From a virus (Duplodnaviria > Caudoviricetes), in IMG/VR virus record IMGVR_UViG_3300020045_006845, positions 1 through 36,959 of that record: DNA of 36,959 bases; one strand, 5' to 3'. Positions 12,292 to 36,959 of the stretch are shown here, one piece after another. Every line of letters begins with the position of its first letter. Within the stretch, counting starts at the first letter, position 1. The notes under the pieces are model-generated. The model worked only from the letters and a program-made list of their open reading frames with translations. It searched no databases and was not told the DNA's origin. A program made the position numbers and the translations under genes.

Positions 12292-13541
12292 TATACGGTT
12301 GCTATTGCTGTTTTAATTGTTGCAATATCATCATAAATAAATGCTTGTTCGTCTAATTTTTTAACGAATGCGTGGAAACGGCTTTCTCCTAAGATAACAA
12401 ATTGATTTTTGATAAAGTCGTCATTAACCCATCCAATTTTAACTGTGTAAGTCATGTAATTAGTTGTGTTATACTTAGACATATCAGCAACAAATATTTT
12501 ACCGCTTGGAATTGATTCTTCGGGGATAATTGTCATTCCACCAATTGAAACTTGGTTGAATAATGATGCTGTTGGGTATAATGGATTTCCAAAACCATCT
12601 TTAGCAGATACTAACTGAATAAAATAGTCAATTGGATTAACCATTACTAAGTTAGCCATATAAGGAACCTCATCAGTAAAGTTGTGAGTTGTTGCAATAT
12701 CCGTAACGCAAGCATTAACAACATCCATAAATGTAGGGTTTGCAATTGCCAAAGCCATATCTCCAGCTACAAACGGACGACCGTAAGTTGTCGCTCCTTT
12801 TGGATTTGGTGCAATACCGTCCCCAAACAAAATCCCTTTTGATTTTTTAAGGTTGTGTTTCTTGAATAAGAAATCACGTGCAACACTTTCTAAGCCAGCA
12901 ACATCTTGAATAGATTCCTCTGTTAAACGTTCCCACGCAGCAGTTTTAACTGGTGTTGCGTATTTAGTATCCCAAGAAAAATCAATTTGTTGTTTTGTTC
13001 CTCCTTCTGCTAAAAATGTATAATCCCCATCTTTTGGTTTAGCCTCTGTATAAGGGTAAGCAGCTAAAGTAGTCGTTACATTGTTAGTTAATGGCAAAAC
13101 TCCAATTTCACGCAAATTAATATTGCTTAGTGGTGCTTGTTGTGTACCAGTAATTGCTGGCGGCGAAGTGTTTGTTCCACTTGCTGTTGTGATATTTCCA
13201 ACTGCTTTTAATGTAAGCTCTACAACTCCATTGTTTTTAAAAGCTGATTTAATATCCTCGTGTTTTTCTGCAATTGCTTTTGATAATTGAACATCAAGGC
13301 TTTCAATTTCCTGTGTTCCTTTATTAGCATCAAGCAATTGTTTAGCGATTTCGTCGGCGATTCCGTCTTTAGCTTTTTGAATTTCAGTATCTAATGTTTC
13401 TTTAGATATAGAGTTTTCTAACTTCTTTTCAATACTGCCTAAATACTCATTCTGAATATCGGCTTGTTTTTCAACTTCCAACGCTTTAAATGCGCCTAAA
13501 GTGATTCCTTTTGTTTGTAAAAACGTTTCAAATGGATTCAT
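12291..13541 (-). CDS. Major capsid protein, HK97 fold
   Basis: 416 aa; N-terminal helical delta domain; AEGGTKQ, K.AAW..LTEE, ILFGDG..PN.KG, GWVNDDF.KN..VILGESR. Confidence 0.93.
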   Translation of the reverse strand: MNPFETFLQTKGITLGAFKALEVEKQADIQNEYLGSIEKKLENSISKETLDTEIQKAKDGIADEIAKQLLDANKGTQEIESLDVQLSKAIAEKHEDIKSAFKNNGVVELTLKAVGNITTASGTNTSPPAITGTQQAPLSNINLREIGVLPLTNNVTTTLAAYPYTEAKPKDGDYTFLAEGGTKQQIDFSWDTKYATPVKTAAWERLTEESIQDVAGLESVARDFLFKKHNLKKSKGILFGDGIAPNPKGATTYGRPFVAGDMALAIANPTFMDVVNACVTDIATTHNFTDEVPYMANLVMVNPIDYFIQLVSAKDGFGNPLYPTASLFNQVSIGGMTIIPEESIPSGKIFVADMSKYNTTNYMTYTVKIGWVNDDFIKNQFVILGESRFHAFVKKLDEQAFIYDDIATIKTAIATV

Positions 13542-25936: not shown

Positions 25937-26097
25937 TAGTTATAATTTACTTGTTTAACAATAATTCTCGTTTCAAATTTCTCAAAGCATTGTTTGGGAG
26001 AAAGTCCCGCCCAGTACATTTCAAATCTGTAAATTTGTCGGTTGCCTTTCCAAAAAGTGTAACCGCTTAATTGGTTTGTAAAATCGGTGTAGGTCAT
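25936..26097 (-). CDS. Small hypothetical protein, 53 aa (MTYTDFTNQLSGY...)
   Basis: Read manually; fills the gap with TAATG coupling. Confidence 0.6.
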   Translation of the reverse strand: MTYTDFTNQLSGYTFWKGNRQIYRFEMYWAGLSPKQCFEKFETRIIVKQVNYN

Positions 26098-26099
26098 AG

Positions 26100-26345
26100 T
26101 TATTCAAACATTTTTAAAGCATTATCTAATGTATTTTGCGCTTGTTCATTTGTTATAGATAAAAACACTTTATCTCTTGTTTCAGTATCTTCGTAACCAT
26201 AAGAATATTGACATTTTACACCATTAATATAAAAAACAACTAACAATAAATCGTTTTCTTCTTGCTCTTCATCATTACTAAAATCTTTTTGTAAAAGCAC
26301 TTGATGAGTTGGTAATTCAATAATTCTAAAATTAATTTCTTTCAT
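26100..26345 (-). CDS. Hypothetical protein
   Basis: 81 aa ORF in operon. Confidence 0.7.
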   Translation of the reverse strand: MKEINFRIIELPTHQVLLQKDFSNDEEQEENDLLLVVFYINGVKCQYSYGYEDTETRDKVFLSITNEQAQNTLDNALKMFE

Positions 26346-26356
26346 TTTTTCTTTTT

Positions 26357-26851
26357 TTAAAGTAGCGGCTTTGCGGTTAGTATTAATTCACGGAAATTCT
26401 CTAAAAATAAATCACGTGTTTCAGCGTCTTTGAATGATAGAAAATTACTTGTGTTATAGTAACTATCTTTATTTATTACATCATTATGAAATTCTATACA
26501 ATACTTTGAGAAACTTGAATCTTCCCAATCCGCAACCCAACCATCATTATAAACTTTCATTAATTGCGAAAGTTGAGCAAGCGCAATTGACGCTTCGGCT
26601 TGTTCATGTGTTGCGAAAAGTTGTTTAGAAAGTATTTTATTTCCTTTTGTTTCAGCAGAAGACTCTATTGCTTCGTCAAATACAGAAACATAATAACCTA
26701 CAATCTCTCCCAACTCCTCCCAACTTTTAGGCAATGATTTTTTACCAAGCTCAGGGAATGTTGTTAAAGCTAATTCTTTTAATTCTGCATCGTTTCCGTT
26801 AAACCAACGTTCGGCAGTTGCTAGTGTGATTTTTATTTTTCTTGTTTCCAT
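26357..26851 (-). CDS. Conserved Bacteroidota phage hypothetical protein
   Basis: LPKSWEE..ALAQL.QL...YN.GW..DW..FL.F......FL.NF..LI. Confidence 0.8.
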   Translation of the reverse strand: METRKIKITLATAERWFNGNDAELKELALTTFPELGKKSLPKSWEELGEIVGYYVSVFDEAIESSAETKGNKILSKQLFATHEQAEASIALAQLSQLMKVYNDGWVADWEDSSFSKYCIEFHNDVINKDSYYNTSNFLSFKDAETRDLFLENFRELILTAKPLL

Positions 26852-26937: not shown

Positions 26938-27867
26938 TTAAAACAACGTAGCTTTATTAATATCTCCTTTGCCATTCCAGAATATACTTTCAAACACTTT
27001 CTTTTTATTATTGGTAGCGGATAAACTACTTCGGTGTTTAAACATTTCAATCTTTTCAAATGGTGCATCGTACTCGCTTAAATAAGCGGGATAATCTAAA
27101 TTTGAAAACCACTCGTAAAAAGTATCGTGATTAAATCCACCCTCTTTATATTCGCCTGTGCCTTTGTATGGAATATCACAATAAATAATTGGGTTTTCAT
27201 TAGGATTTATAATAACTTTTTCGTAACTTGTATTCGTTATTTGTAGGTTTTGTAGGTTTTGTAGGTTTTGTAGGTTCTGTATTCTTTCTAATTGAACTAT
27301 CCGCTCAAGGCTTTGTACATCAAACCTACTTTTATCCTCTTTTTTTATAAAGTTGCAAAATTTAATCCGCCTTTGTTGAATATCTTTTATCTTCAATAAA
27401 TTAGGAATATCAACTCCAATTTCATGCATTGCATATAAATCACAATTGACAATAAATTCGTGTGCTAATCGTTTTATACTTTCTATATCTGCACCATACA
27501 AATAACTATTTTGACTATTCCCAAAACTCCAGCAACTCATTACAAAACCGCTATACCAATCTGCGTCGTCATTAGTTTTATTAATTTGCTTTTTAAATTC
27601 TTCACGTGTTACCCATTCGTAGAATTTAGGCTCTAATTCTTTATTATTTTTAAGATACTCTACTAAACTATAAATATGTTTATTTAGTTCGTTATAATGT
27701 ACTTTAAATCGATAATCACGTATTGCAGTAAAACTAATTGAACCACCACCACCAAACAAATCATAAAAGTCTGTTATATTATTGTGGCGTTGCGTTATTT
27801 TCTGCAGTATATCACTTGCAAGTTTTCGCTTTGAACCCATATATGGTATTCCTAATTTTTCGCTCAT
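26938..27867 (-). CDS. DNA adenine methyltransferase, D12/Dam-like (likely start MSEKLGIPYMGSK)
   Basis: PYMGSK, DLFGGGGS (SAM binding), YCDIPY (DPPY-like), F.H..FY.W. Confidence 0.9.
   Translation of the reverse strand: MSEKLGIPYMGSKRKLASDILQKITQRHNNITDFYDLFGGGGSISFTAIRDYRFKVHYNELNKHIYSLVEYLKNNKELEPKFYEWVTREEFKKQINKTNDDADWYSGFVMSCWSFGNSQNSYLYGADIESIKRLAHEFIVNCDLYAMHEIGVDIPNLLKIKDIQQRRIKFCNFIKKEDKSRFDVQSLERIVQLERIQNLQNLQNLQNLQITNTSYEKVIINPNENPIIYCDIPYKGTGEYKEGGFNHDTFYEWFSNLDYPAYLSEYDAPFEKIEMFKHRSSLSATNNKKKVFESIFWNGKGDINKATLF
27241..27276. repeat. 9-bp tandem repeat x4 (TTGTAGGTT) encoding NLQ repeats in the MTase
   Basis: Directly visible. Confidence 0.9.
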
Positions 27868-35343: not shown

Positions 35344-35443
35344 CTTTTATTTTTTTAATTAATTCCTCCGCTTTTGGTTTTAGAAATTTCGTCTGTATTA
35401 ATGACAAAAATTCTATTAACTCTTGTTTTAATTGTGGTGTCAT
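35330..35443 (-). CDS. Small hypothetical protein, 37 aa (MTPQLKQELIEFL...)
   Basis: Read manually; A-rich initiation region; overlaps the next start. Confidence 0.45.
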   Translation of the reverse strand: MTPQLKQELIEFLSLIQTKFLKPKAEELIKKIKDESK

Positions 35444-35505
35444 TTATTTTGTTTTTTGTTAGATATGTCTGATTTTTTCATCCCAAGCCGATAGTTATGC
35501 GAGAT

Positions 35506-35886
35506 TTAATCCCAATCACGCATATAATCCATTACATTTCCATTTTGAGGAAGTTCTTCATCAGAACAACTATTATATTCTCTTAAACAACTACCGCACA
35601 GATATTTATGATGTGTATTTGTAGGGGTTACGTCTTTTGAACAATATTCGTCATCATAATAACAAAATATTTTTTCTATACTGCCTTCCTTTATTTTGCA
35701 TTTTACAACTTTTGTTTCATAGGGATATTCTTCGTCATTACTAACTTCTTTTATTTTAACATAAGTTTCAATCCATATAAATTTTTGATTATAGCTTTTT
35801 GCATTTCCAAAAATATCTTGTCCTATTTCTATGTCATCAAAAAGTTCATTATTAATAAATTCATCAGAAATTGCTATTACATTCAT
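35506..35886 (-). CDS. Cassette 1 gene, hypothetical protein
   Basis: 126 aa between repeats 35494-35508 and 35901-35915. Confidence 0.75.
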   Translation of the reverse strand: MNVIAISDEFINNELFDDIEIGQDIFGNAKSYNQKFIWIETYVKIKEVSNDEEYPYETKVVKCKIKEGSIEKIFCYYDDEYCSKDVTPTNTHHKYLCGSCLREYNSCSDEELPQNGNVMDYMRDWD

Positions 35887-35908
35887 TGCATAATATTTTA
35901 TAAACCTC

Positions 35909-36044
35909 GCATAACAGCAGTTAAACGCTAGTGTCAGGCTTGGTATTTATCCGAAATGTGTCGGATGCACTTAATTTTTATTGTTTGTTTGTAATGTTAG
36001 GTGTTCAATCGTGCCACCAGTCGTTTAGCTGCCAAACGTTAGTA
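35909..36044. repeat. attC-like site 1
   Basis: GCATAAC-A-GCAGTTAAACGCTAGTG...CACCAGTCGTTTAGCTGC-CAAAC-GTTAGTA. Confidence 0.75.
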
Positions 36045-36059
36045 GAAATGGCTACAACC

Positions 36060-36398
36060 CTACATATAGTAAGCCATATAACCTTCATTTTTACCAACTA
36101 TTGCAGACATTAAATCACCCCAAGCACGCCACGAAAAGCCTAATGAATTACCGTCTGAAAAAACAAAGCAAGTATTATTTGCTTTTCTATCAGCAGTTTC
36201 GCCAACCCAAGATAAATCCTCAATAGCTTTTTTGATTAACCTGAAATGCGGTTGAAATTCTTCTTTGTAATCAGATAAATATTCTTCCCAATTAGGAGAA
36301 ATATCCATACCTCCAATTATTGGTTTGTAATCTTCTGGGTGGTTAGTTGTTACAGTAAGCTCTAATCCGTTTTCGTTTTTTAATTTTATAAAATCCAT
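36060..36398 (-). CDS. Cassette 2 gene, hypothetical protein
   Basis: 112 aa, FSDG....FSWRAWGDLM.A motif; between repeats 36038-36052 and 36437-36451. Confidence 0.8.
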   Translation of the reverse strand: MDFIKLKNENGLELTVTTNHPEDYKPIIGGMDISPNWEEYLSDYKEEFQPHFRLIKKAIEDLSWVGETADRKANNTCFVFSDGNSLGFSWRAWGDLMSAIVGKNEGYMAYYM

Positions 36399-36444
36399 CT
36401 TTTTGCAATTTAAAATTATACTCTTGTAAATTATCTGCCACTTC

Positions 36445-36580
36445 TACTAACAGCCGTTTGCGAGTATGGCTGTCTTAGTTTTTCCTGCGGAAAAACATGA
36501 GGCATCGGTTATTGTTATTTTGTTTCTGTTTCGGTTAGTGCTTAACCACCGCCACACTCGCAAGCGGAATTAAGTTATAA
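36445..36580. repeat. attC-like site 2
   Basis: TACTAAC-AG-CCGTTTGCGAGTATGGC...GCCACACTCGCAAGCGG-AATTAA-GTTATAA. Confidence 0.75.
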
Positions 36581-36587
36581 GCAATGG

Positions 36588-36959
36588 TTATAAAGATTGC
36601 GATAAAACATAATCTTCATAAACTTTCTTTCCTTTATAGGTGCAATAATGTCCAGTATAAAAACAATAATTATCAATTCTTTCAAAACTACTTTGAATCA
36701 AATCTTTTTTACACATTTTTCCTAAATAAGAAAATGTCATTGTATCTATTACGGTTTTTGCAGAACGAGCAAAAGAATATTTTTCAATTGTTTCATTGTC
36801 AAAAATAATCTTAGTAAGCATTCTACCGTGAATAGGATTTTTCCAATTTATATCTTTATTTACAAGAAATTCTAAAACTTTAAACTCTTTTTCTGTCAAT
36901 TTACCACTGCTTATAACAGCGGTTTTGGTGTCAGCTTGTTCGGTAGTGATTTTAGTTTT
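36588..36959 (-). CDS. Cassette 3 gene, hypothetical (winged-helix-like); frame is open to the window end
   Basis: Between repeats 36574-36588 and 36903-36917; frame continues upstream as KTKITTEQADTKTAVISSGK. Confidence 0.7.
   Translation of the reverse strand, partial: KTKITTEQADTKTAVISSGKLTEKEFKVLEFLVNKDINWKNPIHGRMLTKIIFDNETIEKYSFARSAKTVIDTMTFSYLGKMCKKDLIQSSFERIDNYCFYTGHYCTYKGKKVYEDYVLSQSL

Follow-up and report, generated by a model that had tools for sequence, protein, structure and literature searches.

At the right end of a phage genome, three short genes follow one another, each enclosed by its own inverted repeat. This arrangement raises the question of whether the genes are integron-like mobile cassettes and, if so, which enzyme moves them. 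The window, that is, the whole stretch of DNA that was analysed, is an entire linear virus record of 36,959 bp (88% complete). Its genes for terminase, major head, tape measure, primase-helicase, Erf, NinB and NinG all lie on the minus strand (PHROGs, 39 ORFs), and the three-cassette array continues past the right end of the record. When the array was compared with phages and plasmids by blastn, nothing matched.

An earlier note on this DNA had described three pairs of 15-bp inverted repeats, starting with GTT and ending with AAC. All three pairs (35494/35901, 36038/36437 and 36574/36903) were recovered at the stated coordinates, each complementary at 14 of 15 positions. The sole mismatch is at position 11 in 3/3 pairs, with A in the GTT arm and C in the AAC arm. 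Arms from different cassettes pair at just 7-10 of 15 positions. The features of the array are as follows.

35484..35496, plus strand: left array boundary ending A/GTT; a decayed hairpin arm and a secondary insertion site are the candidates
35494..35508, plus strand: cassette 1 start arm (GTT core and 12 nt), with the presumed crossover between 35494 and 35495
35506..35886, minus strand: cassette 1 gene, 126 aa, no homologue except itself
35901..35915, plus strand: cassette 1 end arm, 14/15 complementary to 35494-35508
35913..36040, plus strand: hairpin site 1 (AAC, 2 nt, stem 35918-35926 with 36023-36031, 6 nt, GTT)
36038..36052, plus strand: cassette 2 start arm
36060..36398, minus strand: cassette 2 gene, 112 aa, family of 64 proteins
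36437..36451, plus strand: cassette 2 end arm, 14/15 complementary to 36038-36052
36449..36576, plus strand: hairpin site 2, stem 36454-36473 with 36548-36567
36574..36588, plus strand: cassette 3 start arm
36588..36959, minus strand: cassette 3 gene, open frame through the end arm into hairpin 3
36903..36917, plus strand: cassette 3 end arm, 14/15 complementary to 36574-36588
36915..36959, plus strand: hairpin site 3, start only, cut by the contig end

Taken by themselves, 14/15 pairs at 250-600 nt spacing gave 12 hits in 6 clusters over the whole window. Three of these clusters are outside the array, and none of the three starts with GTT. Inverted pairs of 15-18 nt, 450-590 nt apart and without GTT cores, were also seen at 12394-12993, 25972-26519 and 27398-27858 of the window; such non-array pairs are probably due to chance. 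A stringent detector based on GTT/AAC cores and the position-11 signature identified 219 pairs (191 with a hairpin) in 150 real loci versus 2 pairs (0 with a hairpin) in 1.42 Mb of shuffled loci. Thus, it is the combination of cores, common mismatch and tandem layout, rather than the 14/15 match alone, that is beyond chance. In another locus, L206, a 13/15 pair at the corresponding place was judged a chance match, since one of its ends falls within the endolysin gene.

The hairpins between cassettes, previously given as 136 bp, measure 128 nt from AAC to GTT and 137 from arm start to arm start. Hairpin 1 would belong to cassette 1, forming a unit of 544 bp (35495-36038), and hairpin 2 to cassette 2 (36039-36574, 536 bp). 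Relative to shuffled sequences, folding was strong for hairpin 2 (z -3.7 / -3.0) and within the shuffled range for hairpin 1 (z -1.2 / -1.75). On the bottom strand, circle forms of the window sites fold 9-12 kcal/mol better than array forms. In a set of 326 sites selected for arm match and position-11 signature, the circle form was more stable than the array form for 324, and the bottom strand more stable than the top for 320.

Distribution of these sites was assessed by searching viral and genome collections with one strict site pattern. At least 122 viral and at least 143 genome loci were matched, with estimated totals of about 190 viral and 1800 genome stretches. Among the genome matches listed, nearly all were Bacteroidota, and the most matches in one locus (16) occurred in Flavobacterium. 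The site family and its distribution point to a Bacteroidota host for the window phage, in keeping with the Bacteroidota setting suggested before. One Cyanobacteria-labelled bin and one Blastocatellia bin (L233, L245) were also matched, which may reflect binning error or spread beyond Bacteroidota. In loci retrieved by protein only, the enriched geometry was a 4-nt offset: read in gene direction, AAC is followed by 6 nt and GTT is preceded by 2.

It had also been proposed that the end of each cassette matches its own start and not the arm closing its hairpin, with cores following RYYYAAC/GTTRRRY. Using sites chosen by hairpin only, with arms unselected, an own-end match of at least 13/15 was found for 61/129 viral and 76/93 chromosomal neighbours, and a match to the hairpin-closing arm at the same level for 0/129 and 3/93, respectively. 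A second count gave own-end matches in 24/65 and 50/83 cases and matches to another site's arm in 0/65 and 0/83. Own-start matching therefore holds both in the window and in the hairpin-chosen viral and chromosomal sites, but the GTTRRRY consensus does not: as read from the sequence, the window cores GTTATGC, GTTAGTA and GTTATAA fit it strictly in 0/3 cases. End-to-end complementarity does not extend past position 15. An A occupies position 11 in 222/222 sites, with C opposite in 81-90%. Inner-stem positions outside the search pattern pair in 83-92% versus 30-67% in shuffled sequences, and they do so with several pair types, which indicates covariation. The bubble between arm and stem is 6/2 nt, and the first 9 stem pairs are unbroken.

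Cargo genes gave few functional clues. Pfam, PHROGs, PADLOC and the atlas provided nothing usable on function, the lone atlas lead being MarR-like (0.88, 29% of members). No viral loci were found for cassette 1 or cassette 3 proteins. A 125-aa protein on a separate 1047-bp contig matches the cassette 3 gene, and its start lies 2 codons past the window edge. In the cassette 2 family, nearest relatives retain the cassette arms and distant members are plain phage genes. The window cassette genes run against the cassette top strand, whereas host-array genes run with it; accordingly, cargo opposes the GTT strand in 222/229 viral cassettes with a dominant ORF and follows it in 115/127 chromosomal ones. 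The window shows the viral orientation, which makes the plus strand its top strand and assigns to each window cassette the right-hand hairpin, upstream of the gene. The first ATG was inside the hairpin for 80/183 viral cassette genes (a count without control), and the cassette 3 frame likewise begins inside its own hairpin.

The window contains no tyrosine recombinase detectable by PHROGs (39 ORFs) or PF00589, and a profile of the recombinase family described below gave no match there (best E 0.64), in agreement with the earlier note. When related phages and host arrays were searched for an IntI/XerC-like enzyme, a Xer-like family without the IntI insertion emerged at array heads. In 10 phage loci, a member of this one family (a frame of 267-329 aa) lies on the opposite strand, at a distance of 13-106 nt from the first cassette, and chromosomal arrays have relatives of 349-376 aa upstream on the same strand. 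All 12 array-linked recombinases tested keep R-K-H-R-H-Y. These 12 proteins scored 115-211 bits versus an IntI cut-off of 265 (TIGR02249); array-linked recombinases have no insertion relative to XerC/XerD, leave IntI model positions about 180-238 unmatched and are 27-29% identical to host XerC/XerD. Associated with the arrays by position only, this family likely acts on these sites.

Array heads in relatives have no hairpin, and A or T precedes GTT, versus C in 279/282 hairpin-preceded sites. At the left end of the window A precedes GTT, as in heads, with a poor fit to the head profile and no recombinase there. The putative remnant at 35481-35496 scored -23.4 bits with the in-register hairpin-arm profile, -6.3 bits with the array-head profile (built without the head of L141) and +5.4 bits when treated as a hairpin arm with a 3-nt shift; a left arm partnering it was not found. 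Position 35494 was considered as an attI-like head, given the A preceding GTT, and the head-profile score did not support it. Next to this boundary, a 13-codon ORF (35443-35484) continues the frame of the cassette 1 gene beyond the stop codon of that gene and is coupled to the following gene, of 37 codons. It may be the tail of a gene disrupted by the array.

Lack of the enzyme is not peculiar to the window. The family recombinase was found neither in L136 (100% complete) nor in L160, despite their arrays. Among near-complete carriers, 0/3 had the enzyme in one set, and 16/25 had no match in a second, biased set, in which 9 of the 40 records, the first ones, had been picked because they were known positives and the rest lacked a nearby recombinase, so that this figure is not a population rate. 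Because the window and many near-complete carriers have no such enzyme, we infer that it is supplied by a host or helper. The missing ~12% of the window phage may also hold one.

If the genes are cassettes, related phages should differ exactly at G/TT. Such changes in content were found in three comparisons (L136/L160, G005/L150 and cassette 2 relatives), and exchange of genes at the GTT boundary, as first proposed, is thus borne out in related phages but not at the window locus itself. The 11-cassette array of L136 shares with L160 blocks of 98.6-99.9% identity, bounded by G/TT and including the right hairpin, with a different cassette between them. G005 (95% complete), a close relative of the window phage (96.8% identity over 2.8 kb), has no array at the window's place and carries at least 4 other cassettes near terminase (L435, G005:C1:32500-36469), so arrays sit at different places in kin phages. 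One G005 cassette is 92% identical to L150 over a stretch that begins at its GTT and stops immediately short of the following GTT, and this common cassette is mid-array in one phage and at the head position in the other. At the exact window locus, neither an empty site nor a different cassette was found in relatives: a scan for phages with the same left flank returned G005 only, and its junction there is not at G/TT. Across loci, only 18/62 alignment ends were within 25 nt of a core, many of them redundant.

Flanks of the cassette 2 gene were read for 30 of 66 loci. Both arms are kept in L366-L368, the core is changed in L369, and one arm is present in L001. A second type of arm is found in the homologues from L372 and L003; the L372 end arm fits the L003 start arm better than its own, and the L372 start arm differs at positions 5-7. 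The remaining loci read, mostly more distant, have no arms. Between the window and L366-L369, the cassette 2 body shows 83-87% identity versus 44-50% for left flanks (random 50%), and three further left contexts of this cassette were seen. In relatives, both arms are altered together from T-A to C-G, a compensatory change. The right hairpin of cassette 2 is only 44-50% identical between the window and L366-L369, i.e., different, and L151 and L158 have the same body with unlike hairpins on both sides, which indicates that the hairpin is not always carried along with the gene. In addition, the phages Freya and Leef have the same arms and hairpin start around unrelated genes. The idea that these two phages share one cassette was dropped, as just 43 nt are common. 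Although 3/3 window genes have one arm pair each, as previously noted, arms are therefore not strictly tied to a gene, as cassette 2 relatives and Freya/Leef demonstrate. Both the replaced hairpins and the unrelated genes within the same arms could be explained by an additional crossover, at the AAC core, or by the copying of new genes into old arms.

These observations are best accounted for by an integron-like array of a Bacteroidota-specific type, whose units are swapped at G/TT in relatives and which is here likely moved by a Xer-like tyrosine recombinase of the host or another phage; we consider this reading probable. Each unit would consist of TT, the gene, AAC, the hairpin and G. By analogy with integron and Xer chemistry, as outlined in the accessible portions of two sources (PMC4792948, PMC8371274), the bottom strand would fold during replication, and the outer 15-nt arm and inner stem could serve as two enzyme-binding arms, for two monomers, across the 6/2-nt bubble. 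Cleavage of the bottom strand at AA/C would then be followed by exchange of one strand and resolution of the junction by replication. Cassettes would be released as circles, with full pairing between their two ends. The fixed mismatch at position 11, which is G.T in the bottom and A.C in the top strand, is a candidate strand selector replacing extrahelical bases. Phage cargo may be inverted so as to read with the early genes, often starting within its own hairpin.

The main rival, ranked directly below this explanation, is that the array is a frozen relic: the system would be real, but the array would have been captured once, have lost its head and enzyme, and now be inherited or moved by homologous recombination. 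A contig without recombinase, a left end resembling a hairpin arm short by 3 nt, and decay of cassette 2 homologues (changed core in L369, one arm in L001) are all consistent with such a history. Yet all three window pairs are intact and carry the signature, and L136 and L160, themselves without recombinase, still differ by exact cassette swaps. We regard a relic as unlikely, while taking it seriously.

How the array relates to integrons can be assessed feature by feature. Single-gene cassettes, GTT/AAC cores, the match of each end to its own start, the G/TT crossover and long host arrays are common to both. A hairpin-free head site beside a tyrosine recombinase, a possible counterpart of attI, is seen in relatives, and the left end of the window fits the head profile poorly. 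The chimeric site expected from own-start matching was present, and gain, loss and exchange at G/TT occurred in relatives. However, IntI is defined by a domain of about 35 residues, according to the part of the source consulted (Cury 2016, PMC4889954), which the family recombinase does not have; neither the window nor the array-linked recombinases provided an IntI integrase with its specific insertion near patch III. The attC consensus (RYYYAAC/GTTRRRY, L box extrahelical bases, central spacer) was not found either: family cores depart from GTTRRRY, the 15-nt arm with its fixed mismatch replaces a 7-nt box, and the 6/2 bubble without a bulge in the first 9 stem pairs differs from the 6/5 bubble and one bulged base seen by eye in attC-aadA7. 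The longer repeats and different inner spacer noted at the outset thus proved correct. Phage cargo is inverted as well. As a CALIN, the array has no integrase but does not have canonical attC sites. In short, it works like an integron but falls outside the IntI and attC definitions.

That these are nevertheless ordinary attC sites of a CALIN, moved by the canonical IntI of some host, would be suggested by the GTT/AAC cores and the integron-like chain rule, and by a report on Polaribacter phage P12002L. In the accessible portion of that study (Qi et al. 2023, PMC9892861), two sites were scored as attC, and IntI1 recombined attC2 and not attC1. We found that the P12002L genome carries the present site family, position-11 signature included, and, like the window, has no adjacent integrase; it has methyltransferase cargo. 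By our reading of the sequence, attC1 corresponds to the hairpin that separates two cassette genes, and attC2 to the array left boundary, not to a family hairpin. The family-type hairpin is thus the site that IntI1 did not recombine. Together with the divergent bubble and with the lack of any IntI above cut-off in three Flavobacterium genomes with arrays, this makes the canonical reading improbable. The parts of Qi et al. available to us treat the sites, two in number, as canonical attC and describe no long arms, head sites or non-IntI recombinase. Beyond that partial account, no prior description of the system as such was found in the literature searched, which was mainly openly accessible.

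Xer/dif systems and CTX phage offer another comparison. As envisaged for the present sites, they involve a Xer-like enzyme and two binding arms around a short spacer; the dif layout is 11-6-11 (PMC8371274, in part), and CTX demonstrates that a folded single strand can be a substrate of XerCD, which has no I2 domain (PMC4792948, in part). In contrast, the present system combines tandem arrays and cassette-specific arms with a dedicated family recombinase, which differs from host XerC/XerD. Its sites are not of the conserved 28-bp double-stranded dif kind used by host XerC/XerD; arms vary per cassette and flank 128-nt hairpins.

The hairpins could instead be RNA elements, such as terminators or translation control elements, and at the same time provide common linkers at which homologous recombination occurs without any site-specific enzyme. 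In line with this idea are three plus-strand terminator-like hits, versus 0.6 expected, and the uncontrolled count of first ATGs within hairpins (80/183). The Flavo-1 RNA motif is similarly a widespread structured repeat in Flavobacteriaceae, present on either strand (PMC9723704, in the portion seen), but its Rfam model is unmatched in the window and in 11 array loci, where Rfam gave no matches at all. RNA function would leave unexplained the complementarity across 400 nt, the compensatory change, the G/TT breaks, and the adjoining recombinase and heads, and we find it slightly harder still to credit than the canonical attC reading. Finally, an array at the end of a linear record, and Flavobacterium chromosomes full of the same sites, might suggest that the contig end is host chromosome or misassembly, but the cargo is inverted as in phages (222/229) and opposite to chromosomes (115/127 forward), and cassette 2 relatives sit among phage genes, so that this is hardly credible.

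The mobile, integron-like array that we favour has a wider implication, on which our judgement is evenly balanced: a second, largely unseen integron of Bacteroidota and their phages, in which an I2-less Xer-like recombinase would shuffle single-stranded hairpin cassettes. It would represent an independent invention or an ancestral state preceding IntI; phages would trade cassettes freely, most would borrow the enzyme, and many 'integrases' of Flavobacteriia phages, now taken as markers of lysogeny, would be cassette recombinases. The I2 helix has been credited with letting IntI handle single-stranded sites (PMC4792948, as far as the available text goes), and if an enzyme did cassette work without this helix, the origin of integrons would become open to testing. 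The system would also be a precise route to mosaicism in phage early genes. The estimated abundance of the site pattern (1800 genome stretches, about 190 viral) contrasts with the one complete integron, in Salinibacter, that the accessible part of the IntegronFinder 2.0 report names for Bacteroidetes proper (PMC9024848). The window array itself is a small, enzyme-less example.

Cultured representatives are at hand. Freya, Leef and Ingeline, phages of Polaribacter and Cellulophaga, carry the enzyme and a head site, with clear cassettes in Freya and Leef, and the system is therefore testable now. Their GenBank 'integrases' match the recombinase family at 38-41% and are located at head sites (L430-L434). 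In the text available to us, Bartlau et al. (PMC8776804) took these integrases as signs of temperate life; judged by homology and location, they may not be lysogeny integrases.

Two further observations concern arrays in other genomes. In a Flavobacterium array (L268), two related cassettes at about 15630-15320 and 12440-12135 have G+C-rich repetitive bodies with no obvious gene by eye. To the left of many heads (L024, L074, L092, L109, L116, L123, L133, L145 and others), a conserved protein of 59-71 aa is present instead of the recombinase; by eye, it looks like a ribbon-helix-helix regulator.
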